Below, piece after piece: positions 2,186-31,560 of a stretch of 32,000 nt of DNA (positions are counted from its first letter, which is position 1; each line of letters opens with the position of its first letter). This stretch comes from Vibrio vulnificus CMCP6 (GTDB taxonomy: Bacteria > Pseudomonadota > Gammaproteobacteria > Enterobacterales > Vibrionaceae), in contig NC_004459.3 of assembly GCF_000039765.1 (NCBI RefSeq), positions 2,601,127 to 2,633,126 of the forward strand, given 5' to 3'. Position numbers and translations under genes: made by a program. Below the pieces are notes generated by a model. It made no database searches. It was not told where the DNA came from and worked only from the letters and a program-made list of their open reading frames with translations.

Positions 2186-2290
2186 TTGTCATCTCGCTGT
2201 CTTATATTTGTCACGTAAGCGTCACAGCCATCTCATAGACTCACCCCCAATCACATACTGATTTCTGTGAATGGATTTACTGGTTTGTCT

Positions 2291-7532: not shown

Positions 7533-9311
7533 CTAGATTCTGCCTTGAAGTGGAATAATTGTCACGCTTTCTCCCGTTTTTACGCTATCCACCGCGGGAG
7601 AAATTTCAATCAAGCAGTTGGCTTCACTCATCGAACGCAAAATGCCAGAGCCTTGTTTCCCAGTCGTGCGAACGGTTAGGCGGCCAGTTTCATCCAATTC
7701 ATAGACACCACGGCTAAACTCCGTGCGGCCTTGGCGAGAACGCAAATCTTCTTTGGCAATCGCACTGACTTTCAATGGCTTCCAGCCTAGCTCGCCTTGC
7801 ATTTTACGTACCGCAGGCTCAACAAAGTTGATGAATGATACCATCACGGCAACAGGGTTGCCCGGCAGGCCAAAAAACGGTTTTTCATTGATCTGACCAA
7901 ATGCTAATGGGCGCCCAGGACGCATATTGATGCGCCAGAAATCAATTTGTCCGAGCTTGTCGAGAGCCAGTTTGATGTAGTCGGCATCGCCAACGGACAC
8001 GCCACCCGAAGTAATGACCACATCCGCTTGCTGCGCTGCGCTTTCTAGTGCGTCGATCATCGATTGCTCGTTGTCTTCTAGAATGCCGAAGTCCAAGATG
8101 TCACAGCCGAGCTTCTCAAGCATGCCCATAATGGTAAAACGGTTTGAATCGTAGATAGAGTTCGCTTTCTGTTCTGTACCAGGCGCTTGAACTTCGTCGC
8201 CGGTGGAGAAGACTGCCACTTTCAACTTACGTAATACATTGGCTTGTGCAAAACCAAGAGAAGCCATCATGCCCATTTCAGGTGAGGCGAGGCGAGTCCC
8301 TGCGGTAAACACGCTACTGCCGATGGTTAAGTCTTCACCCGCTTGGCGTACGTTTTGTCCGGCTTTGATGTTGGCACCATTGAAAGTGACCTTGTCACCG
8401 TCTTGATGCGCTTGCTCACGCATGACCACCGTATCTCCGTTGATGGGCGTTGGCGCACCGGTCATGATTTTGACCGCTTGCCCCAATTCTAACAGGTGTT
8501 CGTAGTGGTAACCGGCCAGCACTTCAGCCACGATCTGGTAACTTTCTCGCTGTAAGTCATCACTTCGAATGGCGTATCCATCCATCGCTGAGTTGGTGTA
8601 TTGCGGTACATTCACCGGAGAAATCACGTCGTGAGCCAGCACGCGCCCATAGGTGTGTTGTATCGGGCACGATTCAATATCACCCACAGTAGAGACGAGG
8701 GAGAGAATTTTCTCTTGCCCTTGGGCAACAGAAAGAAACGCCGGAGAAAGCGTATCGCAACATGCGGCAGGTGCATTTTGCGTGGCCACTTGCTGATGTT
8801 GGTGAACATAATCGAGGACAAATTGGCAAATCGCATCCAGATCATTGATGTTGAGTTGGGGCAGTGCGCTTTCTAACGGGCCACTGTCTGAAGCGATGGC
8901 AATAATGTTCTCATCATTAGGGTACAACCACGGTTTTCCGACTTCTTCACGATGCAATTCGATTTTGGGAAACGCAATGTTCTTGCAGCCTTCGACCAAA
9001 ATGACGTCAATCGTTTGCTGATCAAAGCGGCTAAGCAGGTAATCAAATTCCGATTCAGCCTCAGGGGTTTCTGTCATCAAGGCAAAACGATTTCTCGAAG
9101 CAATCAGCATTTGTGAGGCACCCGCTTTGCGTAAGCGGTAGCTGTCTTTACCTGGTTTATCGACGTCAAAATCATGATGAGCGTGTTTCAGTAACCCAAT
9201 TCGCAGACCTGCTGCGGTCAATTTTGGCAACAAGGCTTCCAGTAGGGTGGTTTTTCCTGTGCCTGAATAAGCAGCAAAGCCAAGTAAAGGCAAAGTGATG
9301 GTGTTTCTCAT
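7533..9311 (-). CDS. moeA: fused MobB (MGD-biosynthesis adaptor, P-loop) / MoeA (molybdopterin metal-insertase) protein
   Basis: 592 aa. Residues 1-170 align with E. coli MobB ([36 protein letters not shown]). After a short linker ([16 protein letters not shown]), the rest is MoeA-like ([26 protein letters not shown]). The ATG overlaps the mobA stop (ATGA). Confidence 0.9.
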
Positions 9312-9895
9312 GATTCTAGTTGTCCAAATTGGGTGAGTTCTTCAGGCGTGTTGAGGTTGACGAAACAGTCTGGAGAATCACTAAAATCCACATACTGTGT
9401 GTGACACTCTTTGTAGAGTAAGATGATTTTACGGTCACCGCGTTCTAAAAACGCCGTCAGTTTAGGCAAAACACGTTTGTGATACAGGGTAAAAACAGGT
9501 TGCTGATGATTGCCATCATGGGCAACCAAAATGTCGGTTTCATCCGTCACAGCACGACAAAAGCGCTCCACCAAGTCTTCATTGATACGGGGGCAGTCAC
9601 AAGGAACAAAACCAACCCAATCGGTACTCGCGTGCAGTAATCCGGCATGAATGCCGCCCATAGGACCAGGGAAATTTTGAAAATGATCGCCAAACACGGG
9701 ACCATATTGTTGGTAATCATCCTGATTGCGGTTGGCATTGATCAGAATGTTTGAAGTTTGCGGCGTTAGCCGGTCAATGACGTACTCAATCAACGGCTTA
9801 TTATTTAAGGCGATTAAGCCTTTGTCTTTACCGCCCATTCGGCTAGCTTGGCCGCCAGCTAAAATAACCCAACTAGTGAGTGTTGGTTGTAGCAT
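9308..9895 (-). CDS. mobA: molybdenum cofactor guanylyltransferase MobA
   Basis: [27 protein letters not shown] matches the MobA N-terminal LAGGxxxRMGG-DKG motif. I chose ATG 9895 by alignment with the E. coli MobA N-terminus; the ORF track start is 9931. The gene overlaps the tupC 3' end by 23 nt. Confidence 0.85.
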
Positions 9896-10592
9896 AGGTA
9901 TTCTCTTGGGATAACTCTTTTGTAATGACATACAAGAGTGGCGACTCTACCAGAGTATTGTTTTTGATCCACCACTGTTTTTTACACAAATCGGTAAGCG
10001 CGTTGGTTTGATGGCTCGTGACCACAATGCTGGAACCTCTCGCTAATAAATCTTGCGCTAACACCACTAAACGCTCGATCGACTCTTGATCAACCGACGC
10101 GCTGGGTTCATCCATCAGCAAGATTGAAGGTTTTAGGATCCAAGCCCTGGCCATCGCAACCCGTTGACGCTCACCACCAGACAGCACAGACACATGCTCA
10201 TCGGCTAAGGTTTCTAAGCCTACCATACGCAGCGCGTGAATCACTTCGGCTCGTTTCTCCTTTGTGCTGCCACCATCATATTTGATGCCGTAAAGGACAT
10301 TTTCATAGACGGAACCATCAAAAAGATAAGGGGACTGATGAAGATAAACAACATCACGACGGCCCAATGAAGGAAACCAGTGGCGAAGCCAGCCATTATT
10401 TTGCGCACACACTTTACCGCTCGTCGGATGCACCAAACCAGCCAAGATCTTCAACAAGGTCGTTTTGCCTACACCATTGTCCCCCTTGAGGTAAATGGCA
10501 TCGTTAGGGCCGATTTGAAGTTGAGGAATGTGAAACAGCACTCGCTCTTTAAAGCGCATGGAAAGATCTCGAGCGGTAATTTTAATCGTCAT
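9873..10592 (-). CDS. tupC: ABC transporter ATP-binding protein (TupC-like)
   Basis: Walker [10 protein letters not shown], signature [12 protein letters not shown], Walker B LLMDEP. The true start is ATG 10592 ([10 protein letters not shown]...), 8 nt after the tupB stop and preceded by GGAAG. The 366-aa track ORF carries a spurious N-terminal extension that overlaps tupB. Confidence 0.75.
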
Positions 10593-10600
10593 ATCACTTC

Positions 10601-11299
10601 CTAAGTTCGCAAATAGCCTTTGCCACGCATACTCGACAGCAAAAAATTCAACACGAGTGCCAAGGTGAGCAGCACAATACCAAGCGCAACACCTTGAGCA
10701 AAGGCGCCCTTGTGGCTCTCCATTGAAATCGCGGTGGGGATGTTTCGCGTCAAACCCATAATGTTCCCACCAACCATCATTGAACAACCCACTTCGGTCA
10801 CAATTCGAGAAAAACCGGTAATGGTGGCCGCCATAAGAGGAAAACGGGTTTCCCAAATCATCGTCCCACTTAATCTTGGCAGAGACACACCAAGGGTTAA
10901 TGCGGTTTCTAACGCGCGGCGATCGCTCGATTGCAACGCGCCATACATCATCGAAACCAACACAGGAAAACAAATCAGCATTTGCCCGAGGATCATCGCT
11001 TTTTGGGTGAACAGCATCTGCCAGTCACCGAGCGGACCTGATCGCGAGAGGAACATGTAAAGCAGCAAACCAATCACCACCGTGGGTACCGATTGCAACG
11101 TGTTCACAAATGAAACCAACAGCCACTTGCCGCGAAAATTGGTGTAGGCGAGGAGAAAAGACAAAAAAGTCGCAGGCAACAGCACCAACAATATGGCAGT
11201 AAGAGAAACGCTAAAGGAGACCGCAACGATCTCCCATAGTTCTTTGTCTAAGCTAAACAGTAAGGCAAAAGCCTCTTGTGTTGTTTGCCAAAGGCTCAT
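10601..11299 (-). CDS. tupB: ABC transporter permease (TupB-like)
   Basis: 232 aa with about 5-6 TM segments, lying between the binding-protein and ATPase genes with 6-nt and 8-nt gaps. Confidence 0.75.
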   Translation of the reverse strand: MSLWQTTQEAFALLFSLDKELWEIVAVSFSVSLTAILLVLLPATFLSFLLAYTNFRGKWLLVSFVNTLQSVPTVVIGLLLYMFLSRSGPLGDWQMLFTQKAMILGQMLICFPVLVSMMYGALQSSDRRALETALTLGVSLPRLSGTMIWETRFPLMAATITGFSRIVTEVGCSMMVGGNIMGLTRNIPTAISMESHKGAFAQGVALGIVLLTLALVLNFLLSSMRGKGYLRT

Positions 11300-11305
11300 T
11301 GATGA

Positions 11306-12124
11306 CTACTTCTGATCTGCATTTGCCACAAACAGTTGCTTGCCATTTAAGCGGAAGCTGTTGATCAGCTCTTGACCACGAGGATTGACCAACCAGTCAC
11401 TGAATGCTTTGGCGCCCTGATAATTGATGCTCGGGTAGCGCTCTGGATTGACCAAAATCACTTGGTACGGGTTGAAGAGTTTTTGATCACCTTCGAACAG
11501 TACCGCAAGATCCAACTTGTTGTTGTAAGCCAGCCAAGTGCCACGGTCTGTTAACGTGTAACCTTGCATTTCTGACGCCATGTTCAGCGTTGGCCCCATA
11601 CCTTGACCCACTGAGCGATAGCCGCCGAAGTTGGGTTCCATCTTGGTTTGAGCCCAAATACCCAGTTCTTTCTTGTGCGTACCCGAATCATCGCCACGTG
11701 AGATAAAGGTGACATTGTTGTCCGCGATGGCTTTAAACACCTCAAGTACGCTGTTGTCTTGAGCAACTTTCGCTGGATCTGCTTTTGGTCCCACGACGAT
11801 AAAGTCGTTGTACATTAGCTTGCGAGGTAACACTCCGTAGCCTTTTTCGACAAAGGTCGCTTCGGCTTTCGGAGCATGCGTCATCACCAAATCCACATCG
11901 CCATTTTCACCCATTTTCAGTGATTTACCTGTCCCTGCGGCCAGCACATCCACTTTATAACCGGTGTCTTTTTCGAATTCAGGCAGTAGGTAATCAAGCA
12001 GGCCAGAGTGATAAGTACTGGTCGTGGTTGCCAAACGCACACGGTGAACATCATCGGCAGAGAAAGAGGAGAAACTCACCAGCGTAATCGACGTTGCCGC
12101 CAAAGTAAGAGCTACTTTGTTCAT
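11306..12124 (-). CDS. tupA: periplasmic tungstate/molybdate-binding protein, TupA type
   Basis: 272 aa with a signal peptide (…SFSSFSA). The N-terminal RLATTTSTYHSGLLDYLLPEFEK contains the TTTS anion-binding motif characteristic of TupA-family proteins, and AAGTGKSLKMGENGDVD is TupA-like. Confidence 0.8.
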   Translation of the reverse strand: MNKVALTLAATSITLVSFSSFSADDVHRVRLATTTSTYHSGLLDYLLPEFEKDTGYKVDVLAAGTGKSLKMGENGDVDLVMTHAPKAEATFVEKGYGVLPRKLMYNDFIVVGPKADPAKVAQDNSVLEVFKAIADNNVTFISRGDDSGTHKKELGIWAQTKMEPNFGGYRSVGQGMGPTLNMASEMQGYTLTDRGTWLAYNNKLDLAVLFEGDQKLFNPYQVILVNPERYPSINYQGAKAFSDWLVNPRGQELINSFRLNGKQLFVANADQK

Positions 12125-12233: not shown

Positions 12234-12249
12234 TGGATATCAGTTTGCA
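12234..12249 (+). promoter_or_regulatory. weak sigma-54-like -24/-12 element facing the regulator gene
   Basis: TGGATA-TCAGT-TTGCA. The GG and GC are correctly spaced but there are three mismatches in the -24 hexamer. It lies face-to-face with the stronger minus-strand element. Confidence 0.3.
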
Positions 12250-12266
12250 ATTGCATATAGTCCTAT

Positions 12267-12282
12267 TGCAAACAAGATGCCA
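12267..12282 (-). promoter_or_regulatory. sigma-54 (-24/-12) promoter of the tupABC-mobA-mobB::moeA operon
   Basis: The minus strand reads TGGCAT-CTTGT-TTGCA against the consensus TGGCAC-N5-TTGCW (one mismatch). It lies about 140 nt upstream of the tupA ATG. Confidence 0.65.
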
Positions 12283-12351: not shown

Positions 12352-12368
12352 TGAGACAAAATGTCGCA
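12352..12368. promoter_or_regulatory. 17-bp dyad, candidate enhancer (UAS) for the sigma-54 activator
   Basis: TGAGACAAAATGTCGCA. The centre is about 80 bp upstream of the tupA -24 element. It is near-identical to the sites at 25270-25286 and 25331-25347, and it lies 20 nt upstream of the regulator's ATG 12388. Confidence 0.55.
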
Positions 12369-12387: not shown

Positions 12388-13893
12388 ATGATTCATTGGT
12401 ACACTATGTCCTATACGTCATTCTGTCTCGAGGAAAGTATGTCTATTCAATTGGATCCCAACTCCGTATCTCAATACCAAGCGTTTTCCGTGTTAGTCGT
12501 CGATGATGAAGTCGGCATGCAGGCCATTTTGAAAAAAGCGCTGGGTAAATGGTTTTCAAAAGTGGATGCGGTAGGCAGTATCGAACAGGCTGAAAAGCTC
12601 AGAGTGACCAACCATTACGACCTAATTGTTCTCGACATCAATTTGCCCGGGCGTTCGGGCATCGAATGGGAAGAAGCCTTCAATGATCCCGAGCGAAAAG
12701 CCGATGTCATCTTTATGACCGGATATGCCGATCTCGAAACCGCCATTACAGCGCTGAAACTGGGCGCGACGGATTTTATTCTTAAGCCGTTTAATCTCGA
12801 TCAGATGCTGCAAGCGGTAAAACGCTGTATGGATCGTCGCCTTAATGCACGCATGCAATATGCGCTCAAACGAGATTATCAACGCAATCATATTTCTGAA
12901 ATGGTTGGGAACTCCGACAAAACCCGCCAGCTAAAGCACATGGTTACACAGTTTGCCCCGTCAAAAGCGTGTGTGCTGATTGAAGGGGAGTCTGGCACTG
13001 GTAAAGAACTGGTGGCTCGTGGTGTTCATCTGGCCAGCGGTAGAACCGGTCCTTTTGTGCCATTAAACTGTGGCGCGATTGCTCCTGAACTGTTGGAAAG
13101 TGAGCTGTTTGGTCATACTTCCGGCGCGTTTACGGGGGCGAAAAAAGCACGTGAAGGGCTTTTCCGCGTTGCCATCGGCGGCACATTATTCCTCGATGAG
13201 ATTGGTGAGATGCCACTGGCGATGCAATCGTCTTTGTTGCGAGTGCTAGAGCAACGCAGTATTCGCCCTGTTGGTAGTGAAAAAGAAATTCCAGTCGATG
13301 TACGCGTGGTCGCGGCAACCAATCGCGATTTACAGCAAGAAGTCGAAAAAGGGCGCTTTCGTAAAGATCTCTATTACCGACTCAACGTGCTGAAAATTGA
13401 AGTACCGCCGCTGCGAGAAAGAAAGGCCGATTTGCAAGAGTTGGTGCCATTCTTCACTAAACAGCTCTCAAGCGAGCTTGCTATGTCTGCCCCGCAATGG
13501 GCGCATGAAGACATCGAAGCCATGCATGATTACAGCTGGCCAGGTAACGTACGTGAGCTACGCAATCTGATTGAACGTTGTATTCTCCTTGGCAAACCAC
13601 CAGCGCATTACTGGCGTGAACTGAATGGATCTATGAACCTGCCAAACGTTTCAATCACCGTTTCTCACAGTGCTGAAGTGCCAACTTTTAAAGAAGGGAA
13701 GAAAGAATTCACCGGTGTTGGCTACCCCAATGATTGGACATTAAAAGAGGTGGAAAAGGCCCATATCCAACAAGTGGTGCACTATTACGATGGCAATAAA
13801 TCGGCGGCATCGCGTGATCTTGGCGTGGCACGCAAAACGTTGGAGCGCAAATACAAAGAGTGGGAAACCGAGGAAGCGGATTATGCAGAGTGA
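12388..13893 (+). CDS. NtrC-family sigma-54-dependent response regulator (REC-AAA+-Fis HTH)
   Basis: Receiver domain (VLVVDDE ... [13 protein letters not shown]). AAA+ domain with Walker A GESGTGKE and the sigma-54 contact loop GAFTGA. C-terminal HTH ([19 protein letters not shown]). ATG 12388 has AAGGAG 6 nt upstream; the alternative start ATG 12439 also has GAGGAAAG. Confidence 0.9.
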
Positions 13894-15916
13894 TCAAACA
13901 CTTTGGTCAACTTGGCGCTATCGCTTTAAAAGTATGGTGCGCTATCGGTTGCTGTTTCTAACCTCAGCGCCGATTTTCCTCACCTTGATTGCACTGATTG
14001 GCATCTCTGTCTATTGGTCGATCCATTACACTTGGAGCAGTGCACTGATTGATGTTTCTGAACGCCTTGGGGTTGCCAATAACAGCATTACGCTATTGCA
14101 ACAGAAGCAGGCTAATTACGTTAAAGCCTTTGCTGAAAGCTATCAGTTTCGCACTCGTATCAATCAGCCAATGGATCAAGACGATCTTCAGCAATGGGTA
14201 CATAAACAGAAAAAGCAATATCAGCTCGATTTTCTCGCTTTTCATCGTGTCGACACCATAGAGCAAAAATTTCGTTTTCTCGATTTAACCAAACGAGAAT
14301 CCTTTTTTGATGTGTTGAGCGAAACGGAGTTACAACGTCTTGATCCAGACTTGGCCAAGCGCGCCGAAGTGCCGATTTTAAAAACGGGCAAAATTGAAAC
14401 GCGTGGCCTCATCAGCCGCACTGTGATTCCAGTGTTTAACCAAAGTAATGATCTGATTGGTTTTCTAGATGGCGGGTTACTACTTAACAACAGCACCGTG
14501 CTCGTCGACCAAATCCGCGACTTGATTTACATCGGAGATGAGGATTCTCTCAGGCCGATCGGTACCGTGACGCTGTTTATGGAAGATCTCCGCGTCAGCA
14601 CCAATGTACCACTAGACAGCGAAGATCAGATTGGCCGTGCGATCGGTACTCGGGTTTCTGGTGAAGTGCATAAATCGGTATTGCAGCAAGGAGAGCGTTG
14701 GGTTAATCGCGCCTTTGTGTATGACGCTTGGTATATCACCGCCTATCAACCCATTCGCGACCAATACAACAACACCATCGGCATGCTCTACACCGGCTAT
14801 TTGATGTGGCCATTTGTTAAAGCGTATCTTACCAACATAGTGGAAATCAGCGTTATTACCTTAACCTTGCTGGTGGTCTCTGGGCTTTTGGTTTATAGAG
14901 GCTCGCGGGATCTTTTCCGTCCTATTGAACGCATTCATAAAGTGGTGAAATTGGTGCAACTGGGCAAAGACAAGCGGATTGGTGCGTTAGGGCTAGATGA
15001 AAACCACGAGCTGGCGCAATTGGCCAAACAGTTTGACAACATGCTCGATCTGCTCAAAACGCGTGAAGAGCAAATCAAACAAGCGGCCAATGAACTGGAG
15101 CAAAAAGTGTTGGATCGCACAGCCAGCCTCAATGAAAAAACCGAGCAGCTTGAGCACCACATTCGATTACTCAATCAAACTCGCGACAAACTGGTCGTCA
15201 ATGAAAAGCTGGCGGCCTTGGGCGAGTTAACCGCGGGTATCGCCCATGAGATTAACAACCCAACCGCCGTGATACTGGGTAACGTCGAGTTGATTCGTTT
15301 TGAGCTCGGTGAAGATGCCGCGCGCGTAGAGGAAGAGATAGAAACGGTGATGGCGCAGATCGACCGAATTCGTAACATCACGCGAAGTTTGCTGCAATAC
15401 AGCCGACAGGGCGGGGTGCAAGATGAGATCATTTGGCAGCATGTCAATCCTATCATCGAAGAGAGCATTACCTTGGTCAAAACTGGCTCTAAAAAACGCA
15501 CCATCGAATTCGTTACTGAGCTCAATGCGCATACGTCCGTTGAAGTGAATCGCCATCAACTGTTACAGATTTTGGTTAACTTACAAATGAACGCCATCCA
15601 TGCAATGAACGGTGAAGGGCGATTGAGCATCACCAGTGAAGATTGGTTGGAAGAAGGGGAAAGCGTGGGTGCGGTCATCCACATTGAAGATCAAGGTTGC
15701 GGCATTAAGCCCGAAAAACTGAGCCGAATATTTGACCCGTTTTACACCACCAAGCGTGATGGAACCGGCCTTGGTCTTTCTGTTAGCCAGAGTTTGCTTA
15801 GCCAATCAGGCGGGGAGATCAAAGTGCGTTCACAACTGGGGATTGGCAGCACGTTTAGCGTCTATCTCCCAAGAAAGAACGAAGCCAAACTGCGTGATAC
15901 CTTGCTGATTCAATAA
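13883..15916 (+). CDS. sensor histidine kinase with a roughly 265-aa periplasmic (Cache/PDC-like) domain, HAMP, HisKA and HATPase
   Basis: Start ATG 13883 (MQSDQTLW...) overlaps the regulator stop by 11 nt; the track start 13790 is rejected. Two TM segments bracket the periplasmic domain (...RAFVYDAWYITAYQPIRDQYNNTIGMLYTGY). H-box AGIAHEINNP, N-box NLQMNAIHAM, G-boxes DQGCGI and GTGLGLS. Confidence 0.9.
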   Translation: MQSDQTLWSTWRYRFKSMVRYRLLFLTSAPIFLTLIALIGISVYWSIHYTWSSALIDVSERLGVANNSITLLQQKQANYVKAFAESYQFRTRINQPMDQDDLQQWVHKQKKQYQLDFLAFHRVDTIEQKFRFLDLTKRESFFDVLSETELQRLDPDLAKRAEVPILKTGKIETRGLISRTVIPVFNQSNDLIGFLDGGLLLNNSTVLVDQIRDLIYIGDEDSLRPIGTVTLFMEDLRVSTNVPLDSEDQIGRAIGTRVSGEVHKSVLQQGERWVNRAFVYDAWYITAYQPIRDQYNNTIGMLYTGYLMWPFVKAYLTNIVEISVITLTLLVVSGLLVYRGSRDLFRPIERIHKVVKLVQLGKDKRIGALGLDENHELAQLAKQFDNMLDLLKTREEQIKQAANELEQKVLDRTASLNEKTEQLEHHIRLLNQTRDKLVVNEKLAALGELTAGIAHEINNPTAVILGNVELIRFELGEDAARVEEEIETVMAQIDRIRNITRSLLQYSRQGGVQDEIIWQHVNPIIEESITLVKTGSKKRTIEFVTELNAHTSVEVNRHQLLQILVNLQMNAIHAMNGEGRLSITSEDWLEEGESVGAVIHIEDQGCGIKPEKLSRIFDPFYTTKRDGTGLGLSVSQSLLSQSGGEIKVRSQLGIGSTFSVYLPRKNEAKLRDTLLIQ

Positions 15917-15936: not shown

Positions 15937-15967
15937 AAAAAGCTCTGTCGTATCGACAGAGCTTTTT
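15937..15967. terminator. bidirectional rho-independent terminator
   Basis: AAAAAGCTCTGTCG-TAT-CGACAGAGCTTTTT: a perfect stem with A/T runs on both sides, between the kinase gene (+) and the MscS-like gene (-). Confidence 0.7.
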
Positions 15968-16001: not shown

Positions 16002-16883
16002 TTATTGACCGCTGAATGCAATTCTCGGTGGTTTGATGCCGTGTTTCTTAAACTCTTTCATTACACGCAAAGTAATGTCGGATTCAAACAGTTTTTCATA
16101 AGCAGTATCCACCACGTAGGCTTTGCAGGTTAACTGGATAGCCAAATAGTTGTCCGTGATCGTCTGTTTCACCAGTACCACCACCGGTTTCGGCAGGTGG
16201 ATGTAACGGCTAGACGAAGCCGCTTCCTGAATCAACTCACGCGCGAGCACAATATCTTCATCCATACCGACATAGAAGGGGATCACCACCTGCATGTCGA
16301 GTGCGCCATAGTTTCCACTGACCGTCACTTCATTGAGAAACTTGTTGTTCGGAATGGTAATGATGTCATCGGTCAGTGTTCTCATTCGCACAGAACGAAG
16401 GCCAATCGCGATGATGTCACCATAGTTGCCTTCGAACGTGACGCGGTCACCCACCTGAAACGGGCGATCAATCATCACCGTCAATCCGGCAATAAAAGAC
16501 GCGGCCAAGTCTTTCAACGCAAAACCAACCGACACCGCCAACGTACCACCAATTAAGGCTAAGATATGGTCGTTGATGCGAAAGCTCATCATAAACACCA
16601 CAAGGCCAGCGGTTAAGTAGATGAAGAACTGTAAGAACGATTGGGTTTTCTGCAACAGCATTCGATACTGCGCAAACTGGCCGCCAATGCTCTCTACCAT
16701 TGAATTCATGAACTTCAACAGTAGCCAAGTAATGGCGATGATGATGACAGAGAAGAACACACCGCTCCAGCGGATCAAGCTGGCAAATTGCTGAATGTTT
16801 TCCATATTGGCGATTTCTTCCGTCGCGAAGGCCGGTGCCGAGATCAAAGCCGCGGCGAATAGCGCGTAGAGTTTCTTATTCAT
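16002..16883 (-). CDS. MscS-family mechanosensitive channel protein (small, with N-terminal signal-like sequence)
   Basis: 293 aa. MNKKLYALFAAALISAPAFA is signal-like. Three TM segments are followed by the MscS pore/beta-domain signature (GGTLAVSVGFALKDLAASFIAGLTVMIDRPFQVGDRV...IPNNKF). The ATG lies 1 nt after the stop of the upstream gene. Confidence 0.85.
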   Translation of the reverse strand: MNKKLYALFAAALISAPAFATEEIANMENIQQFASLIRWSGVFFSVIIIAITWLLLKFMNSMVESIGGQFAQYRMLLQKTQSFLQFFIYLTAGLVVFMMSFRINDHILALIGGTLAVSVGFALKDLAASFIAGLTVMIDRPFQVGDRVTFEGNYGDIIAIGLRSVRMRTLTDDIITIPNNKFLNEVTVSGNYGALDMQVVIPFYVGMDEDIVLARELIQEAASSSRYIHLPKPVVVLVKQTITDNYLAIQLTCKAYVVDTAYEKLFESDITLRVMKEFKKHGIKPPRIAFSGQ

Positions 16884-16884
16884 A

Positions 16885-19254: not shown

Positions 19255-19453
19255 AACGAAGAGATTGTAGTCTCAAAAACTGTTCATAATTCAGACAAAT
19301 AGAAATTTGCTGTGAAACTTTATCCATATTCACGTTTCAAATGTCAATGTTTTGTGATTTCAGTCATAAAAATCAAAGCTTGCACTCTGGGGCGTGAACA
19401 AGTAACGTTGCGCAGTTTTTTCTATTTGTTACTGACTCACTAAGGTAAAAGCT

Positions 19454-21046: not shown

Positions 21047-21076
21047 TTTCGCGTTGCGTGCTTAAAAAGATCAAAC

Positions 21077-21106
21077 AAAGAGCCTCACTGAGGCTCTTTT
21101 GCTTTT
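21077..21106. terminator. bidirectional rho-independent terminator
   Basis: AAAGAGCCTC-ACT-GAGGCTCTTT followed by TGCTTTTT, between convergent ybiT (+) and the MCP gene (-). Confidence 0.7.
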
Positions 21107-21155
21107 TCCACTACCTATCGTCACTCAGTCGATGACGGCAAGTAGGTTAGGGCGC

Positions 21156-23144: not shown

Positions 23145-23972
23145 TTAACTCTCTTTACCTTTGACATCAAAAATGATGTTTTCACCACCAGTAAAGACTT
23201 GAAAGCGCAAGCCTTTTGCTCGTGCGATGGTGGTAATACCAAATTGACGTGCTAAATCTAAACCCATCTGCGTGACACCAGAGCGAGAGAGCAAAACAGG
23301 GATGCCCATTTGAGCCACTTTGATCACCATTTCTGAAGTGAGACGGCCTGTGGTATAGAAAATCTTATCCGCGCCCGATTCTTGGTTTAACCACATTTCA
23401 CCGGCAAGCGTATCCACTGCGTTGTGACGGCCAACATCTTCGACAAACGAGCGAACTTCATCGCCTTTGCACACCGCACATCCGTGTACTGCACCTGCTT
23501 TTTTGTAGGTATCGTTGTAGTGGGTGAGCGCTTCTAAGGTCTTGTAAATATCCGACTGTTTAAGTGTCACTTGGGGCACTTGATAGTGCTCTAGTTGTTT
23601 CATCACGTTGCCATACATAGTGCCTTGCCCACACCCTGAGGTAACAGTTTTCTTTTTTAAAGCCTGTTCAATGTGTTCTACATTCTCTTTTGTCACTACC
23701 GCTGCGCTGTTGGTTTCCCAATCGATGATCACCGATTCAAGAGAATCAACTTCCGACAAGAAGCTTTGGTTCTTGAGATAGCCCAAAACGAGTGCTTCAG
23801 GTCTCGAGCCCAGTGTCATTAGCGTCACCACTTCTTTCCAGTTCAGAAGAACGGTTAAAGGGCGCTCACAAGCAATTTGCTTAATTAACTTCTCTCCATA
23901 TTCATCGAATACTTCCACTTCAATGGTTTGCAAAGGGTTTTCACTGGTTTTAATAATGTTGGGTTTGACCAC
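23145..23972 (-). CDS. fdhD: formate dehydrogenase accessory sulfurtransferase FdhD
   Basis: 275 aa. It aligns with E. coli FdhD motifs (SGCGQG vs TGCGVCG; VEDVGRHNAVDTL vs HEDVGRHVALDKL; LLSRSGVT). GTG start preceded by AGGAAAAAG. Confidence 0.9.
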   Translation of the reverse strand: MVKPNIIKTSENPLQTIEVEVFDEYGEKLIKQIACERPLTVLLNWKEVVTLMTLGSRPEALVLGYLKNQSFLSEVDSLESVIIDWETNSAAVVTKENVEHIEQALKKKTVTSGCGQGTMYGNVMKQLEHYQVPQVTLKQSDIYKTLEALTHYNDTYKKAGAVHGCAVCKGDEVRSFVEDVGRHNAVDTLAGEMWLNQESGADKIFYTTGRLTSEMVIKVAQMGIPVLLSRSGVTQMGLDLARQFGITTIARAKGLRFQVFTGGENIIFDVKGKES

Positions 23973-24056
23973 TTCTTTTTCCTGCTTGAATGGGTGATAT
24001 CAAGAATCACCGAAGAAACACGTTTGCCAAAGGCGGGGGAACAAAATCAATTCAAT

Positions 24057-24072
24057 AGCAATTACCGTTCCA
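24057..24072 (-). promoter_or_regulatory. sigma-54 (-24/-12) promoter upstream of fdhD
   Basis: The minus strand reads TGGAAC-GGTAA-TTGCT (one mismatch to TGGCAC-N5-TTGCW). It lies about 85 nt upstream of the fdhD GTG. Confidence 0.6.
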
Positions 24073-24140
24073 ATGTCATCTACCGTACGGCGTCTCACAT
24101 CTAACACATGTTACATATGGAAACATTCGCTTTATAACCT

Positions 24141-24156
24141 TGGCTTAGAATTTGCT
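24141..24156 (+). promoter_or_regulatory. sigma-54 (-24/-12) promoter upstream of the DUF3305/DUF3306-like genes
   Basis: TGGCTT-AGAAT-TTGCT, with correct GG/GC spacing. It lies about 100 nt upstream of ATG 24256. Confidence 0.6.
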
Positions 24157-24255
24157 ATTAAACGGCACAAAGCGACGCAACAAGTATGCACCAAGGCCTC
24201 GAATAGGACTAATGTATGTTTAAAGGCAAACGCATAGCAACATGATGGGTGGACC

Positions 24256-24714
24256 ATGTCAAATTCAATAGACGCACAAAGTAATATAGAAAAAAATGAA
24301 TACCTTTGGCCTATAGGCTGCAACCTCGTTGCCCATGAAATTGCCACTGGTATTTGGGTGACCACACAGTGGCAGTTAACGGGTTTTGAGTTAAAGCCAG
24401 AAAGCCACCATAGCCATGTCGTCACGCTTCAGTTGTTCCGTGACGAGCGAACCGACTACCGTTTTAACTTGAGTTCTCAAAACCCGAAACTCTTCGTTGT
24501 GCTTGAGAACGTAGAGGAAACGCCAAAGATCACAACCATCTCGGCATCACAATCGGTGGCTGGCCAGTATATGGATGGCGACTATTTAGTGCTTTCTTGT
24601 GAGATGCCATTGCCAATTCAGGCATGGATGGAAGCGTTTATCGGCCGTCATGGCGAGTTATTAGAAGAGCGCCGCAAGAAACGCAAAGGCGCGGGGCGGG
24701 CAAGTGGCAACTGA
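24256..24714 (+). CDS. FDH-cluster protein of unknown function (DUF3305-like, from memory)
   Basis: 152 aa, soluble, with RBS GGTGGA. The position (between fdhD and the FDH structural genes) and the size match the DUF3305 family as I remember it. I cannot verify this by search. Confidence 0.7.
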   Translation: MSNSIDAQSNIEKNEYLWPIGCNLVAHEIATGIWVTTQWQLTGFELKPESHHSHVVTLQLFRDERTDYRFNLSSQNPKLFVVLENVEETPKITTISASQSVAGQYMDGDYLVLSCEMPLPIQAWMEAFIGRHGELLEERRKKRKGAGRASGN

Positions 24715-25291
24715 TTTTTTCTCTCGCTGGTCCTCTCGTAAGTTAGCGGGAGATAGGCAAAAGCAGCCAAAACAAAGCGATGAAGATATCGCAGCGCACT
24801 CGTCGCTCACCGATGAGCAGAAAAACGCTGTCGAAGAAGACCGCGCATTACTCTCGAACCAGACAAGTGGCAAAAAAGAGGGTGCTGATGAGCAGACGGA
24901 GCAAGAACCTACTATTTCAGCGCTGTTGGCCAGTGAAGCGACGCAAGAAGTAAAAAAAGCGGCACTGCGTAAGCTTTTCCACAGTGAAGAGTTTAACGTG
25001 GTTGATAGGCTCAATGATTACGATCACGACTATAAGTCTTCTATTGGTGCTCTCGCACCCAATGTGGCGCAGACGTTAAGAGAATGGATGAAGCCAGTAG
25101 AGAAAGCGTTGACTGAGGCCGAGCCAGAAAGTGCACCTTGCACATTGGATGGTTCAGTAGCCGTTGATAACGATGAAAGTATTGAGGCGAACAGTGACAC
25201 GCTAACGCAATCTGAGACTCAAGCCCTGACTTTATCTCAATCCGATCTTCCTGCAAATGAAACGCTAGATGAGACAAAATATCCCACATAA
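24704..25291 (+). CDS. FDH-cluster protein of unknown function (DUF3306-like, from memory)
   Basis: GTG start overlapping the previous gene by 11 nt. The N-terminal FFSRWSSRKL motif is followed by an acidic, Gln/Glu-rich low-complexity region. 195 aa. Confidence 0.65.
   Translation: MATDFFSRWSSRKLAGDRQKQPKQSDEDIAAHSSLTDEQKNAVEEDRALLSNQTSGKKEGADEQTEQEPTISALLASEATQEVKKAALRKLFHSEEFNVVDRLNDYDHDYKSSIGALAPNVAQTLREWMKPVEKALTEAEPESAPCTLDGSVAVDNDESIEANSDTLTQSETQALTLSQSDLPANETLDETKYPT
25270..25286. promoter_or_regulatory. 17-bp dyad (distal candidate UAS), embedded in the last codons of the DUF3306-like gene
   Basis: TGAGACAAAATATCCCA. With flanks it matches the tup-region site TGAGACAAAATGTCGCACAT at 18 of 20 positions. 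It lies 61 bp centre-to-centre from the proximal site. Confidence 0.5.
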
Positions 25292-25321
25292 AAAATAGGT
25301 ACATTTTGACGCGGGATGGGA

Positions 25322-25356
25322 AAATTCAATTGGGACAAAATGTCCCAATTGAATTT
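25322..25356. promoter_or_regulatory. perfect 16+16 bp palindrome (proximal candidate UAS / RNA hairpin)
   Basis: AAATTCAATTGGGACA-aaa-TGTCCCAATTGAATTT. The core TGGGACAAAATGTCCCA (25331-25347) matches the shared dyad. The centre is about 90 bp upstream of the -24 element at 25428. Confidence 0.6.
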
Positions 25357-25427
25357 CTCGTCATCGATAGTGCCGTAAAACCCAACAAATCCTACGCTAA
25401 CCGACTGAATAATAAGCGTATAAAAGT

Positions 25428-25443
25428 TGGTATAGCACTTGCT
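25428..25443 (+). promoter_or_regulatory. sigma-54 (-24/-12) promoter of the Fe-S / chaperone / FDH structural genes
   Basis: TGGTAT-AGCAC-TTGCT, with correct GG/GC spacing. It lies about 80 nt upstream of ATG 25521. Confidence 0.65.
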
Positions 25444-25520
25444 AATGCTCCACAACAATAACTGAATTATCAGTATGACCTGCCAATCCTTCGCAGTGTT
25501 GGCCAGTGTGGAACAGAGCA

Positions 25521-27179
25521 ATGATAAAACAACTATTACAGCAATCGACTTCAACCAATGGCAAAGCGCGACTCTATGCGTTTGAAAACACCGTTGAGTT
25601 GGGGAATCTGATACCGCCTACCGTGAGCTATGAAAGCGGTGGTAATACACTCATCGTCGGCCCTAGTGCCATTATTCAAAGTGCAGCCGCACAATTGAGT
25701 CAAATGACTTCGCTAACTTTGCTTTCAACCGATGGCGAGAAAGGCGATGCACAAATCTATTACGCTGATTCCGTTCAGTTGAGTGGTTTTTTGGGCACCT
25801 TTACGGTGCTGGTTGAAAACCAAGGCCAACGTTTGAATCTGGCGAAGGTGGCCATCAATCACGATGTTTTTGATGTGGTTCTGGATTTATCACTTAACGG
25901 CCTCATGTCGGAAGAGGTGCCGGTCCCTGGCTATTATCCTGTTGGGCGTGGCTATCCAAAACTAACGGATGCCCTGCAAGAAATTCCAACCCTAATGGGC
26001 ACGTTCGATAAGCCAAAATATTTCCGCTTAGATACCGATCTGTGTGCGCACAGTTCCCGTGGCGTTAAAGGTTGTGAGCGTTGTGTTGATGCTTGTCCGG
26101 CTGGTGCGTTAAGCAGCCAAGGTTCCGAAAAAACAGGGCATCGAATTGAGATCAATCCGTATCTCTGCCAAGGGGTGGGGACATGTGCCACCAGTTGTCC
26201 GACAGAAGCCATTCATTACGCATTACCTAATCCGCAAGAGACACAAAAGTTCATTGAAAGAACGCTGGCGAACTATGAAAGCGTTGGTGGTGTGAATCCC
26301 ATTATCCTGATTTGCAGCGAACGTCATGAAATGTACAACGTCATGGCACTCAAGGCGCTACCCGACAATGTGATTCCGATTGTGGTGGAAGATCTGCCCT
26401 CTGTCGGCATCGATAGTTGGTTTGCTGCGCTCGTTAATGGTGCAACGCAAGTCTTGTTTGCTGCAAGTCGCCGCATGCCCGCAACGATTCAGCGCGTATT
26501 GAATAGCGAAGTCGCGATCGCACAAGAGCTACTTGGTCAATTAGGCATTGCGAAAGAGTGTATCGATATTCTCTATCTCGAATCATTGATGGAAGGTGCA
26601 CCAGTCCTCTGTACTGAACATTTCGACCTTGCTCTTGGCGATTTGCAAGGCAACAAACGTCAACGATTATTTACTGCACTCGATGCGCTTGCAACCTCGC
26701 GTGTACCAGTAGAAAACATCGTCGCTCTTTCCAGTCATGCTCCCTATGGCGCCGTGTCTTGTGCAACAACGGGCTGTACCTTGTGCATGAGTTGTGTGGC
26801 GGTTTGTCCGACTCGCGCTTTGCACACCGATGGAGAAAGCCCTTCGCTTCAATTTGTCGAGCAAGATTGCGTGCAATGCGGTTTGTGCACCAAAGCCTGT
26901 CCTGAGCAAGTGCTGACACTAACTCCTCGTATGAATTGGGATAAAGAGAGCCGTCAAGCGGCGGTGGTGATCCATCAAGAAAAAGCCGCGGAATGCTTGC
27001 GTTGTCATAAGCCTTTCGCGCCTCAGTCCATGATCACTATGCTACAAGATAAGTTACGTGGTCACTCTCACTTTGCGAATGATGCAGCGCTTAATCGCAT
27101 TGCAATGTGTGAAGACTGCCGTGTCATCGATGTTTTTGAATCGATGGCGGTAAACCCAGAAAACCAACTGAATTACTAG
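25521..27179 (+). CDS. cytoplasmic multi-cluster 4Fe-4S ferredoxin-domain protein associated with FDH
   Basis: About 552 aa with no signal peptide. Ferredoxin motifs: CERCVDACP, CQGVGTCATSCP, CTLCMSCVAVCP, CVQCGLCTKACP. C-terminal CxxC...CxxC pair (CLRCHKPF...CEDCR). The ORF track start GTG 25506 remains possible. Confidence 0.85.
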   Translation: MIKQLLQQSTSTNGKARLYAFENTVELGNLIPPTVSYESGGNTLIVGPSAIIQSAAAQLSQMTSLTLLSTDGEKGDAQIYYADSVQLSGFLGTFTVLVENQGQRLNLAKVAINHDVFDVVLDLSLNGLMSEEVPVPGYYPVGRGYPKLTDALQEIPTLMGTFDKPKYFRLDTDLCAHSSRGVKGCERCVDACPAGALSSQGSEKTGHRIEINPYLCQGVGTCATSCPTEAIHYALPNPQETQKFIERTLANYESVGGVNPIILICSERHEMYNVMALKALPDNVIPIVVEDLPSVGIDSWFAALVNGATQVLFAASRRMPATIQRVLNSEVAIAQELLGQLGIAKECIDILYLESLMEGAPVLCTEHFDLALGDLQGNKRQRLFTALDALATSRVPVENIVALSSHAPYGAVSCATTGCTLCMSCVAVCPTRALHTDGESPSLQFVEQDCVQCGLCTKACPEQVLTLTPRMNWDKESRQAAVVIHQEKAAECLRCHKPFAPQSMITMLQDKLRGHSHFANDAALNRIAMCEDCRVIDVFESMAVNPENQLNY

Positions 27180-27188
27180 GGCACACGA

Positions 27189-27809
27189 ATGGATATCCAA
27201 CCAGAATCGTCATTAAGAGCCGATATTTATTTGCTGCTATCGACGCTATTTCGCCAAGCTCCATCTCCAGCATTGCTTGAGCTATTGACGTTGTTAGACA
27301 CCGTAGCGGATGGCAGTGAAATGCAAAATGCGTGGTTGCAATTGAAAGCGGCCTCGAACCGTTATTCCGACGCAGAGCTTGAAGAAGAGTACCAACAACT
27401 TTTTATCGGAATTGGTCGTGGGGAAGTGGTGCCATTTGCCTCTTGGCACCTCACGGGTTCTTTGATGGAAAAACCACTGGCCGAGATCCGTACCGATCTT
27501 GCTCGCCTTGGCTTTGAACGCCAGGAGCATGTCAAAGAGCCGGAAGATCATATTTCAGCCTTATGTGAAGTGATGGCGGCGCTGATGGAACAGACCGATG
27601 CGCAGCAACAGGCGTTTTTCAACCGCCACCTTGCGACTTGGTATGTTTCCCTCACCAAGCAAATCGATCAAGCCGAACACGCCGGATTTTACTTAGCGGT
27701 TAGCCAATTGCTCGGCGCATTTTTCAATCTGGAAAAAGTGCGTTTAACGAAAATCACGCCGGACAACAAAACCAAATTAAAAATTGAGATTAAAAACTTG
27801 GCGGATTAG
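27189..27809 (+). CDS. TorD/DmsD-family redox-enzyme maturation chaperone
   Basis: 206 aa with the family hallmark EPEDHIS (EPxDH) and the YQQLF motif. It lies directly upstream of Tat-dependent FdhA. Confidence 0.85.
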   Translation: MDIQPESSLRADIYLLLSTLFRQAPSPALLELLTLLDTVADGSEMQNAWLQLKAASNRYSDAELEEEYQQLFIGIGRGEVVPFASWHLTGSLMEKPLAEIRTDLARLGFERQEHVKEPEDHISALCEVMAALMEQTDAQQQAFFNRHLATWYVSLTKQIDQAEHAGFYLAVSQLLGAFFNLEKVRLTKITPDNKTKLKIEIKNLAD

Positions 27810-27871
27810 CCAAGCGATCTCTTTTAGAGAGGCTTAAGCCTCCAAAAATCTACCTGACAGGTAAGGAAGCA

Positions 27872-28072
27872 ATGATGAAAGAAAAAAATGAGATTAACGA
27901 AAGCCGTCGTGACCTTTTGAAAGGTATCGCCACGGCAGCAGTAGCAGGCGCCGTCGTTGCTGGCACCACACAAGTGGCCTCAGCCTCAGAAGTTACTCCT
28001 GTAGAAAAACAGGCGAAGAAAAAGGGATATCACGAAACTCAGCATATCCGCGACTATTACGAAACTCTGTAG
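27872..28072 (+). CDS. 66-aa twin-arginine-signal peptide/protein of FDH loci (formate dehydrogenase region TAT target type)
   Basis: Strong RBS AAGGAAG. Tat motif SRRDLLKG, hydrophobic h-region and an ASA cleavage-like site leave a mature part of about 30 aa (SEVTPVEKQAKKKGYHETQHIRDYYETL). Confidence 0.8.
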   Translation: MMKEKNEINESRRDLLKGIATAAVAGAVVAGTTQVASASEVTPVEKQAKKKGYHETQHIRDYYETL

Positions 28073-28084
28073 GAGCCATCGTCA

Positions 28085-30940: not shown

Positions 30941-30951
30941 GGAGTCTTGAA

Positions 30952-31560
30952 ATGGCTAGAATGAAATTCCTCTGCGACACCAAACGCTGCATCGAATGCA
31001 ACGGTTGTGTGACCGCTTGTAAAAATGAAAACGACGACGCATTAGAGTGGGGCATTCAGCGCCGCCGCGTTGTTACCTTGAACGATGGTGAACCGGGCGA
31101 AAACTCCATCTCAGTGGCCTGTATGCACTGTACCGATGCCCCTTGTATGGCGGTTTGTCCTGCAGACTGTTTTGAACATACCGAAGATGGCATTGTGCTC
31201 CACAACAAAGATCTGTGTATTGGTTGTGGTTACTGCCTGTTTGCTTGCCCATTTGGTGCGCCTCAGTTCCCGAAACAAGCCTCATTTGGCGAGCGTGGCA
31301 AAATGGACAAATGCACCTTCTGCGCCGGTGGTCCAAACACCGAACCGGGCTCAGAAGAAGAGCGTCTGAAGTATGGTGCCAACCGTATCGCAGAAGGCAA
31401 ACTGCCAATGTGTGCTTCGCTGTGTTCAACTAAGGCCCTCTTGGCAGGTGATGCAGAGAAAATCTCCGACATCTTCCGTCAACGTGTCGTGGAACGTGGT
31501 GCAAAAGAGGCCGGTTGGACCAACGGTGAAGATCTATCCTACGATGCAACTCGCAGCTAA
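30952..31560 (+). CDS. fdhB: formate dehydrogenase iron-sulfur subunit
   Basis: 202 aa with four ferredoxin-type Cys clusters (CIECNGCVTAC, CMHCTDAPCMAVCP, CIGCGYCLFACP, CTFC...C). RBS AAGGAG. It has no C-terminal TM, as in Wolinella/Shewanella-type FdhB. Confidence 0.9.
   Translation: MARMKFLCDTKRCIECNGCVTACKNENDDALEWGIQRRRVVTLNDGEPGENSISVACMHCTDAPCMAVCPADCFEHTEDGIVLHNKDLCIGCGYCLFACPFGAPQFPKQASFGERGKMDKCTFCAGGPNTEPGSEEERLKYGANRIAEGKLPMCASLCSTKALLAGDAEKISDIFRQRVVERGAKEAGWTNGEDLSYDATRS

Follow-up and report, generated by a model that had tools for sequence, protein, structure and literature searches.

We analysed a 32,000-nt stretch of the Vibrio vulnificus CMCP6 genome (contig NC_004459.3, positions 2,601,127 to 2,633,126 of the forward strand; hereafter the window), which carries a gene for a sigma-54-dependent response regulator and, directly behind it, one for a sensor histidine kinase. 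The regulator gene diverges from an operon for a Tup-like ATP-binding cassette (ABC) transporter and late cofactor-synthesis enzymes (tupA-tupB-tupC-mobA-mobB::moeA, here tup-mob). Farther along lie fdhD, the DUF3305-DUF3306 genes divergent from it, and an operon for an Fe-S protein, a TorD-like chaperone, a small twin-arginine translocation (Tat) open reading frame (ORF) and the formate dehydrogenase (FDH) proteins FdhA and FdhB (Table 1). The initial annotation of this DNA described the pair as an uncharacterised NtrC-type two-component system controlling all of these units, and the conserved promoters, dyads and gene order reported below argue for that proposal. The reading we arrive at, with a probability of roughly 0.55, is that this pair, orthologous to VC1522/VC1521 of Vibrio cholerae, senses periplasmic formate and activates the four sigma-54 promoters of the locus.

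The regulator matches the Pfam profiles Response_reg (2.5e-24), Sigma54_activat (1.4e-68, over the full profile), AAA_lid_14 and HTH_8 (5e-8). Its phospho-acceptor aspartate is D66, within VLDINLP, and an acidic pair (DD) occupies residues 22-23; Walker A reads GESGTGK, and the GAFTGA loop pointed out in the initial annotation is encoded at nt 13123-13140. A receiver with its Asp, an AAA+ domain with Walker A and GAFTGA, and a Fis-type helix-turn-helix are the sequence marks of the NtrC family (class I), and by family expectation the protein is predicted to act through phosphorylation-dependent ATPase activity and open-complex formation. The regulator ORF proposed earlier is real, while its start at 12388 is probably an over-extension by 17 codons of the gene beginning at ATG 12439. 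A GAGGA ribosome-binding site precedes this ATG, the 484-aa form is the commonest annotated one among the cluster members listed, the V. cholerae ortholog also has 484 aa, and a conserved regulatory dyad falls within the 17 extra codons.

The kinase ATG at 13883 precedes the regulator stop at 13893, giving the 11-nt overlap that had been noted before and that recurs in V. cholerae; annotated V. vulnificus proteins match the 677-aa product with 100% identity. Neither protein reaches an NCBIfam equivalog cut-off, and for that reason neither has a curated name; their public annotation names are generic. The regulator scores best against AtoC (379.9, cut-off 714), followed by NtrC (370 vs 559), ZraR (326 vs 760) and FhlA (243 vs 830), with the LuxO and GlrR cut-offs missed as well; the kinase scores 208.8 against AtoS (cut-off 646) and 163.5 against ZraS (479), matching with its transmitter half alone. 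Downstream of the kinase gene, a hairpin is likely to serve as a bidirectional terminator, for the regulator-kinase operon on one side and for the mscS-like gene converging on it on the other.

Between its two transmembrane helices the kinase has a periplasmic region of 269 aa (aa 47-315), close to the roughly 265 aa at nt 14027-14821 first described. Pfam matches are sCache_3_3 (6e-27), Cache_3-Cache_2 (5e-17, partial, profile positions 100-198), HisKA and HATPase_c, and dCache_1 gave no Pfam match in the kinase. The peptide cited in the initial annotation falls within both the sCache_3_3 and the partial Cache_3-Cache_2 match, which bears out the earlier view that the C-terminal part of the region is Cache/PDC-like. 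An AlphaFold2 model of the sensor, built from an 18-sequence alignment of remote homologs, is confident (predicted local distance difference test, pLDDT, 89.3; predicted template-modelling score 0.83) and runs from a long helix extending the first transmembrane helix through a distal alpha/beta module and a linker helix to a proximal PDC module that leads into the second transmembrane helix, so that two modules are predicted rather than one Cache. Over 81 orthologs, conservation is 0.69 in the proximal module against 0.41 in the distal one.

Table 1. Features of the window (32,000 nt) discussed in the text, in window coordinates; a dot marks features without strand.
Feature	Position	Strand	Remarks
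Sigma-54-dependent response regulator gene	12439..13893	+	484 aa; REC - AAA+ with GAFTGA - HTH_8; VC1522 ortholog
Sensor histidine kinase gene	13883..15916	+	677 aa; VC1521 ortholog
Kinase, first transmembrane helix (TM1)	13946..14020	+	
Kinase, periplasmic sensor	14021..14827	+	
Kinase, membrane-distal alpha/beta module	14141..14482	+	aa 87-200; AlphaFold2 topology; poorly conserved, without predicted ligand
Kinase, membrane-proximal PDC/Cache module, putative formate pocket	14561..14806	+	aa 227-308; R237, T240, R252, T256, Y288, Y303, T228/T230
Kinase, second transmembrane helix (TM2)	14828..14902	+	followed by HAMP-like linker, HisKA, HATPase_c
Kinase, phospho-acceptor His455 (HisKA)	15245	+	
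Hairpin	15937..15967	.	perfect 14-bp stem, A- and T-run flanks; terminator scan
Sigma-54 promoter of tupA-tupB-tupC-mobA-mobB::moeA	12267..12282	-	TGGCATCTTGTTTGCA
Dyad 1, tup side	12352..12368	.	TGAGACAAAATGTCGCA; centre 78 bp upstream of tupA promoter
Dyad 2, tup side	12397..12413	.	TGGTACACTATGTCCTA; 45 bp from dyad 1; read from the sequence
Sigma-54 promoter of fdhD	24057..24072	-	TGGAACGGTAATTGCT
Sigma-54 promoter of DUF3305-DUF3306	24141..24156	+	TGGCTTAGAATTTGCT
Distal dyad, FDH side	25270..25286	.	TGAGACAAAATATCCCA; 61 bp from proximal dyad, within 3' end of DUF3306 ORF
Proximal dyad, FDH side	25331..25347	.	TGGGACAAAATGTCCCA; core of a 16+16 nt perfect inverted repeat
Sigma-54 promoter of Fe-S/TorD-like/small Tat ORF/fdhA/fdhB operon	25428..25443	+	TGGTATAGCACTTGCT
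Predicted target operon 1, tupA-tupB-tupC-mobA-mobB::moeA	7533..12124	-	Pfam/NCBIfam
tupA	11306..12124	-	Tup-like ABC transporter
tupB	10601..11299	-	Tup-like ABC transporter
tupC	about 9873..10600	-	Tup-like ABC transporter
mobA	9308..9931	-	passes equivalog cut-off
mobB::moeA fusion	7533..9311	-	MobB/MoeA pass equivalog cut-offs
Predicted target units 2-4	23145..31560		NCBIfam/Pfam
fdhD	23145..23972	-	
DUF3305	24256..24714	+	divergent from fdhD
DUF3306	24704..25291	+	divergent from fdhD
Fe-S protein	25506..27179	+	557-aa poly-ferredoxin
TorD-like chaperone	27189..27809	+	
Tat-signal ORF	27872..28072	+	66 aa
fdhA	28085..30940	+	
fdhB	30952..31560	+	FDH3-type

Comparison of gene neighbourhoods was based on 80 loci, one genome per species, which were fetched with the sensor domain alone, using a 6-sequence subset of the sensor alignment as query; neighbours were scored by tblastn with the proteins of the window, and tup and FDH3 counts refer to distances within 10 kb. 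We show that one order is conserved, in which mobB::moeA, mobA and tupCBA diverge from regulator and kinase, followed after an interval by fdhD and, divergent from it, DUF3305, DUF3306 and the genes for the Fe-S protein, TorD, FdhA and FdhB. This order is found in Vibrio, Photobacterium, Enterovibrio, Aliivibrio, Moritella, Aeromonas, Ferrimonas and Shewanella, and also in Neptunomonas, Amphritea, Neptuniibacter, Thiothrix, Thiodiazotropha, Woeseiaceae and Oceanospirillum. The V. cholerae locus (L081) repeats the gene order of the window, and its numbering fits VC1510-VC1527, which makes the regulator VC1522 and the kinase VC1521.

The divergent tup-mob operon adjoins the pair in 53 of the 80 loci and fdhD/FDH3-type genes are near it in 36, 10 loci without tup retaining FDH3 genes, so that 63 loci carry tup and/or FDH3-type genes. 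Among the 17 others, 10 have an oxalate/formate-family major facilitator superfamily (MFS) gene directly after the kinase, a NAD-linked FDH (FdsA/B; FdsA scores 947 bits, cut-off 666) or FDH-N (1216 bits, cut-off 814). Some formate-related neighbour, counting tup, FDH or formate-family transporter genes, is thus present in 73/80 loci, and three dehydrogenase classes are represented among these neighbours, in agreement with the proposal that the pair co-occurs with tup and fdh genes instead of standing mostly apart from them. The MFS genes, encoding proteins of ~580 aa, were observed in L039, L055, L059, L060, L069, L070, L074, L075 and L076 (about 12.2-15.7 kb).

Sigma-54-type promoters had been proposed before the tup operon, fdhD, DUF3305 and the Fe-S/FDH genes, and all four -24/-12 elements are present, conserved across gammaproteobacteria, intergenic, and oriented to the proper genes. 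The raw number of -24/-12 consensus matches in the window is at chance level (28 found, 24.6 expected), and the case for these predicted promoters therefore rests on position, orientation, conservation and published data; judged from the sequence, the placement, orientation and conservation of the four are far beyond chance. All 53 tupA-regulator intergenic regions have a sigma-54 promoter towards tupA, with 9-11 of the 11 consensus positions, both divergent promoters occur in 21/21 fdhD-DUF3305 regions, and 22 of 28 regions upstream of the Fe-S gene carry one as well. A further -24/-12 candidate at 27946-27961 was rejected as a promoter, being situated within the 66-aa Tat-signal ORF.

For V. 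cholerae, Dong & Mekalanos (2012; PMC3439928) reported RpoN binding sites from chromatin immunoprecipitation sequencing (ChIP-seq) together with RpoN-dependent expression for four units, namely VC1523-27 (2-6-fold), VC1519 (3-fold), VC1518-17 (7-11-fold) and VC1516-10 (22-69-fold). These units correspond to tup-mob, fdhD, DUF3305-DUF3306 and the Fe-S/FDH operon, respectively, and each of the four published motifs coincides exactly with the ortholog of one of the four promoters in the window. A study of V. parahaemolyticus likewise found the FDH genes to be strongly RpoN-dependent. The RpoN surveys of Vibrio mentioned in the initial annotation do reach this locus. Published work therefore covers its sigma-54 control but neither the activator, left unnamed in both studies, nor the signal of that activator.

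In genomes from Vibrio to Thiodiazotropha, these sigma-54 promoters are preceded, at a distance of 57-188 bp, by a dyad of 17 bp, TGGGACA-N3-TGTCCCA. The pattern TGRGACAAAATGTCSCA has 4 matches in the window against 0.4 expected; the fourth is the reverse-strand reading of the palindrome at 25331-25347, which leaves three sites. The conserved Vibrio counterpart of dyad 2, TGGTACACTCTGTCCCA, keeps the 45-bp spacing to dyad 1, and a second FDH-side dyad is found at a similar position in several Vibrionaceae loci. With up to 2 mismatches allowed, the dyad is present upstream of the tupA promoter in 47/53 tupA-regulator regions, the remaining ones carrying GGGTCA...TGACCC variants. Promoter and dyad occur together in 18 of the 28 regions upstream of the Fe-S gene, at a spacing of about 77-95 bp (usually ~77 bp), and V. 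cholerae has perfect dyads upstream of both the tup and the FDH promoters. Farther afield, in alphaproteobacterial and other distant loci, a sigma-54 promoter precedes 8 of 9 MFS genes, with a dyad as well in 3 of those 8, and a Gallionellaceae genome has two dyads between the FDH-N genes and the regulator gene. We infer that this dyad is likely the binding site of the regulator. Dyad-like matches inside moeA in Photobacterium and Moritella (L017 4621-4637; also near 4.6 kb in L018, L021, L023, L026 and L027) were discarded as coding coincidences, as they encode the conserved LGQIVAQ.

The tup-side intergenic region also contains a sigma-70-like promoter, TGGATA-16-TATAGT (12234-12262), which faces the regulator gene, overlaps the AT-rich palindrome TTGCAATTGCATAT and adjoins the tupA sigma-54 promoter. 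Both tup-side dyads lie between this putative promoter and the regulator start codon, which hints at autoregulation. VC1522 itself is known from a response-regulator deletion screen and as the site of a ChIP peak of the quorum-sensing regulator AphA, which maps to the VC1522-VC1523 intergenic region (PMC6855506).

With gene structure, domains, promoters, dyads and synteny all read from the sequence, we consider it highly probable that the pair (12439-15916) is the activator system for the four sigma-54 promoters of the locus. Two observations run counter to this. The V. parahaemolyticus FDH promoter gave no gel shift with purified RpoN, and the authors of that study called the control indirect. 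In addition, the Vibrio fdhD-DUF3305 region is without a good dyad, that of V. vulnificus having degenerate half-sites only. The latter finding, together with the ~7 kb of unrelated genes that separate kinase and fdhD in V. vulnificus, would fit a pair that controls the adjacent tup-mob operon only, a different enhancer-binding protein serving the fdhD, DUF3305 and FDH promoters 8-12 kb away. We regard such a division as highly improbable. Ahead of the promoter of the FDH operon, the dyad consensus recurs twice in the window and is present in V. cholerae and in 18 loci as well, and in Neptunomonas, Neptuniibacter, Amphritea and Ferrimonas a dyad stands between the divergent fdhD and DUF3305 promoters. 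Moreover, fdhD follows the kinase 3' end within ~1 kb or less in Enterovibrio, Parasalinivibrio, Vibrio cincinnatiensis, Ferrimonas, Neptunomonas, Amphritea and Neptuniibacter, which argues that the block at 16002-23018 is a lineage-specific insertion; the corresponding V. cholerae interval holds an ABC-F gene only.

As to what the kinase senses, the sensor-family profile was compared with the whole PDB, and its best matches were 8PY0 (E 2e-7) and 8PY1 (E 2.6e-6), which were also the sole matches of the proximal-module profile. Both are chemoreceptor sCache domains whose crystal structures contain formate (Monteagudo-Cascales et al. 2025, PMC11804620), and the formate-specific Cache family defined in that work (PacF, Atu0526 and others) has the same Pfam signatures as this kinase. 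Its pocket consists of a central Arg forming a salt bridge, a Thr and a Tyr forming hydrogen bonds, and a Phe floor that shuts out larger ligands (PMC11804620). With residue numbering offsets verified against both 8PY0 and 8PY1, the formate-binding Arg (R111 / R118 / PacF R142) aligns to R237, which is Arg in 79/81 sensors and gapped in the other two; the Tyr (Y160 / Y167) aligns to Y288 within an AYxP motif (Tyr in 79/81); and PacF T145 aligns to T240, kinase and formate Caches having the motif R-A/V-x-G-T in common. R237, T228, T230, T240, N241, R252, T256, S259, W283, Y288 and Y303 are each kept in 78-81 of the 81 sensors, and this conservation holds whether the neighbours are tup/FDH3, NAD-linked FDH, FDH-N or MFS genes. 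In Foldseek searches with the whole sensor, 8PY0 ranked fourth and 8PY1 seventh, with the top sequence identity among the matches. The isolated proximal module had both as its best crystal structures, which lends weak support because the query model was of low confidence (pLDDT 56.8).

Formate or the oxyanions tungstate and molybdate had been suggested as ligands at the outset. Formate is clearly favoured over the oxyanions, since it is the one theme that every genomic context shares and the sole structural relatives have it as their ligand, and we take periplasmic formate to be, on balance, the probable ligand of the kinase, as predicted from homology and context.

This assignment faces objections of its own. 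Similarity to the formate sCache domains is distant (~15-22% identity, E 1e-4 to 1e-7), and the pocket lies in the membrane-proximal of two modules here, in the membrane-distal module in PacF, and in the sole module of the sCache forms. The Phe of the specificity floor (F175 / F182) is replaced by Y303, which is Tyr in 78/81 sensors, also aromatic and of similar size, and the strand-1 Thr (T100 / T105) falls outside the aligned stretch and has no unambiguous counterpart, T228 and T230 being invariant candidates; the length of the hairpin differs. In the distant loci, the MFS neighbours score at the threshold of the L-lactate transporter model, suggesting that distant family members may sense another monocarboxylate. 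Finally, it is tup-mob rather than FDH that neighbours the pair most constantly, and several loci (Shewanella, Aliivibrio and some of those from Photobacterium, Aeromonas, Thiodiazotropha and Oceanospirillum) are without an FDH gene within 10 kb.

The prominence of tup-mob is one argument for a kinase that senses periplasmic tungstate or molybdate and acts primarily as a regulator of metal uptake and cofactor synthesis, with FDH co-induced when metal is present. The operon is always divergent in those 53 loci, with a dyad-bearing intergenic region in common, some genomes have it without a nearby FDH gene, and the many Arg, Thr and Ser residues of the conserved pocket could suit an oxyanion as well. 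In Shewanella oneidensis, a curated annotation even gives the sigma-54 regulator SO4718 (with the kinase SO4717; likely orthologs of the pair) the label 'for tungstate (molybdate) transport', although this is a name from annotation and its source paper states that the regulator is uncharacterised. We judge an oxyanion sensor quite unlikely, as the invariant pocket persists where tup genes are absent nearby and the neighbours are NAD-linked FDH, FDH-N or oxalate/formate-family transporter genes, and as the module's only PDB relatives bind formate in a very small, aromatic-floored pocket, the floor Tyr of the kinase being no smaller than the Phe that it replaces. Metal-uptake systems are, furthermore, usually repressed rather than induced by their metal.

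The remoteness of the sCache homology leaves room for a second alternative, in which the kinase senses another small anion or monocarboxylate (nitrite, bicarbonate, acetate, lactate) or a cue that is no ligand at all, and formate is linked to it by context only. One Pfam Cache family can accommodate different ligands, the Phe-to-Tyr change in the floor could shift specificity, and the MFS neighbours at the L-lactate cut-off would fit as well. We nonetheless consider this unlikely, given that formate oxidation or transport is the sole functional theme common to the 80 loci and their three enzyme classes, and that the Arg, Tyr and Thr positions proposed to mark formate binding are invariant.

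Under the formate reading, periplasmic formate would bind in the pocket of the membrane-proximal Cache module, held by a salt bridge to R237 and hydrogen bonds to Y288 and T240 (with T228 or T230) above a floor formed by Y303. The signal would run via TM2 and the HAMP-like linker to His455, from which the phosphoryl group would move to D66 of the regulator. The regulator would then assemble on pairs of TGGGACA-N3-TGTCCCA dyads some 60-190 bp upstream of each promoter, and its GAFTGA loop would drive open-complex formation by sigma-54 RNA polymerase. The predicted joint output comprises uptake of tungstate/molybdate (tupABC), the finishing of the bis-molybdopterin guanine dinucleotide cofactor (mobA, mobB::moeA), FdhD, DUF3305/DUF3306 and the operon for the Fe-S protein, the chaperone and the periplasmic FDH, so that formate, as substrate, would induce its enzyme along with the supply of metal and cofactor.

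A more elaborate version would make the pair a two-input gate, with formate at the proximal module and a periplasmic partner, most plausibly metal-loaded TupA, docking on a LuxQ-like distal module, as LuxP reports to LuxQ; FDH and the cofactor machinery would then be induced only with both substrate and tungstate or molybdate present. The distal module gives a weak match to the LuxQ periplasmic domain (E 0.006, sensor-family profile against the PDB), Foldseek target-normalised TM-scores of the sensor to LuxQ are ~0.6, and tupA is constantly adjacent. These facts are compatible with such a gate and none is specific to it, and we mention it as a long shot.

Among known systems, the FhlA regulon of E. 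coli (fdhF/hyc/hyp) is alike in having formate as inducer, a sigma-54 enhancer-binding protein, upstream sites and FDH genes that are switched on. In contrast to the pair, FhlA is a one-component, cytoplasmic protein with GAF domains, with neither a receiver nor a kinase, and it controls the cytoplasmic FDH-H and hydrogenase 3; here, a periplasmic Cache kinase and a phospho-activated regulator are predicted, with a periplasmic respiratory FDH, metal uptake and cofactor genes as targets. The formate Cache chemoreceptors (PacF, Atu0526, 8PY0/8PY1) combine sCache_3_3 with a partial Cache_3-Cache_2 match and have the Arg, the Tyr and a Thr at Arg+3, but their output is that of a chemoreceptor and not of a histidine kinase.

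DctB/DctD had been offered as a guide to the pair. It stands as an architectural analogue, with a periplasmic double-PDC kinase (DctB is among the Foldseek matches) and an NtrC-family sigma-54 regulator acting on carboxylate-related genes; the closest sensor relatives are instead the formate-binding Cache chemoreceptor domains. The DctB ligand sits in the distal module, a single transporter gene is the target, and no specific sequence relationship with the kinase was found. ZraS/ZraR and AtoS/AtoC are the best-scoring named NCBIfam relatives of the transmitter and activator parts, yet their sensor domains are unrelated to that of the kinase and all scores are far below the cut-offs. ZraSR, too, is divergent from a target gene with sigma-54 promoters, and the intergenic region they share contains an inverted-repeat site. 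VC1522/VC1521 agrees with the pair in gene order, gene sizes, the 11-nt overlap and RpoN-bound promoters, and VF_1401 of V. fischeri, listed as an unnamed class I enhancer-binding protein, is a candidate ortholog.

That no named system has such a wiring, as was suspected from the start, agrees with the NCBIfam scores and with the literature. Searches on VC1522/VC1521, SO4717/SO4718 and formate sensing, in which subscription journals were mostly uncovered so that an earlier description is possible, turned up no characterising paper and no assigned signal, binding site or regulon. What is new here is the shared dyad, the synteny over 80 loci and the two-module sensor with its kinship to formate Caches.

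Two-component systems that employ a sigma-54 activator are ordinary machinery, and it is the predicted wiring and ligand that are unusual. If the formate reading is true, an orphan sigma-54 activator conserved in Vibrio pathogens and in many marine gammaproteobacteria and symbionts gains a function, a signal and a site on DNA, and the large RpoN dependence published for the V. cholerae FDH operon, so far unexplained, would be accounted for. The system would further provide a periplasmic counterpart to the cytoplasmic FhlA formate switch, in which the substrate induces the enzyme plus metal uptake and the last steps of cofactor synthesis, and would carry the recently defined formate-binding Cache family beyond chemoreceptors, to kinases that regulate genes and have a membrane-proximal pocket. 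The pair and its dyad/promoter cassette could then be used as an extracellular formate biosensor.

Turning to the predicted targets and their surroundings, TupA, TupB and TupC fall below their NCBIfam cut-offs (246.7 vs 400, 181.3 vs 320 and 98 vs 400, respectively), and for that reason the models do not settle whether tungstate or molybdate is transported. The TupA model has no competitor for its protein, in whose translation a TTTS motif can be read, the TupB model ranks second after a generic ABC-permease model, and the TupC model is far down the list. FdhA reads ARICHSTTV at the Sec position of selenocysteine-type enzymes, without an in-frame stop in the translation, and appears to be a Cys-type formate dehydrogenase. 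Directly 5' of fdhA, the 66-aa ORF has a twin-arginine-type signal and a weak Pfam match to the Rieske TAT signal; V. cholerae has a 65-aa counterpart in the same place (L081 18686-18883).

The interval between kinase and fdhD holds an MscS-like gene and genes for a 789-aa AAA_22 protein, an ABC-F ATPase and a chemoreceptor; the last of these (21156-23018) adjoins fdhD and resembles CtpM-like receptors in its signalling half. Genes unrelated to the regulatory pair occupy the left end of the window (203-1165 and 2267-4318), namely one for a diguanylate cyclase of the PAS-GGDEF type and a second chemoreceptor-like ORF, the latter recognised by reading its translation.

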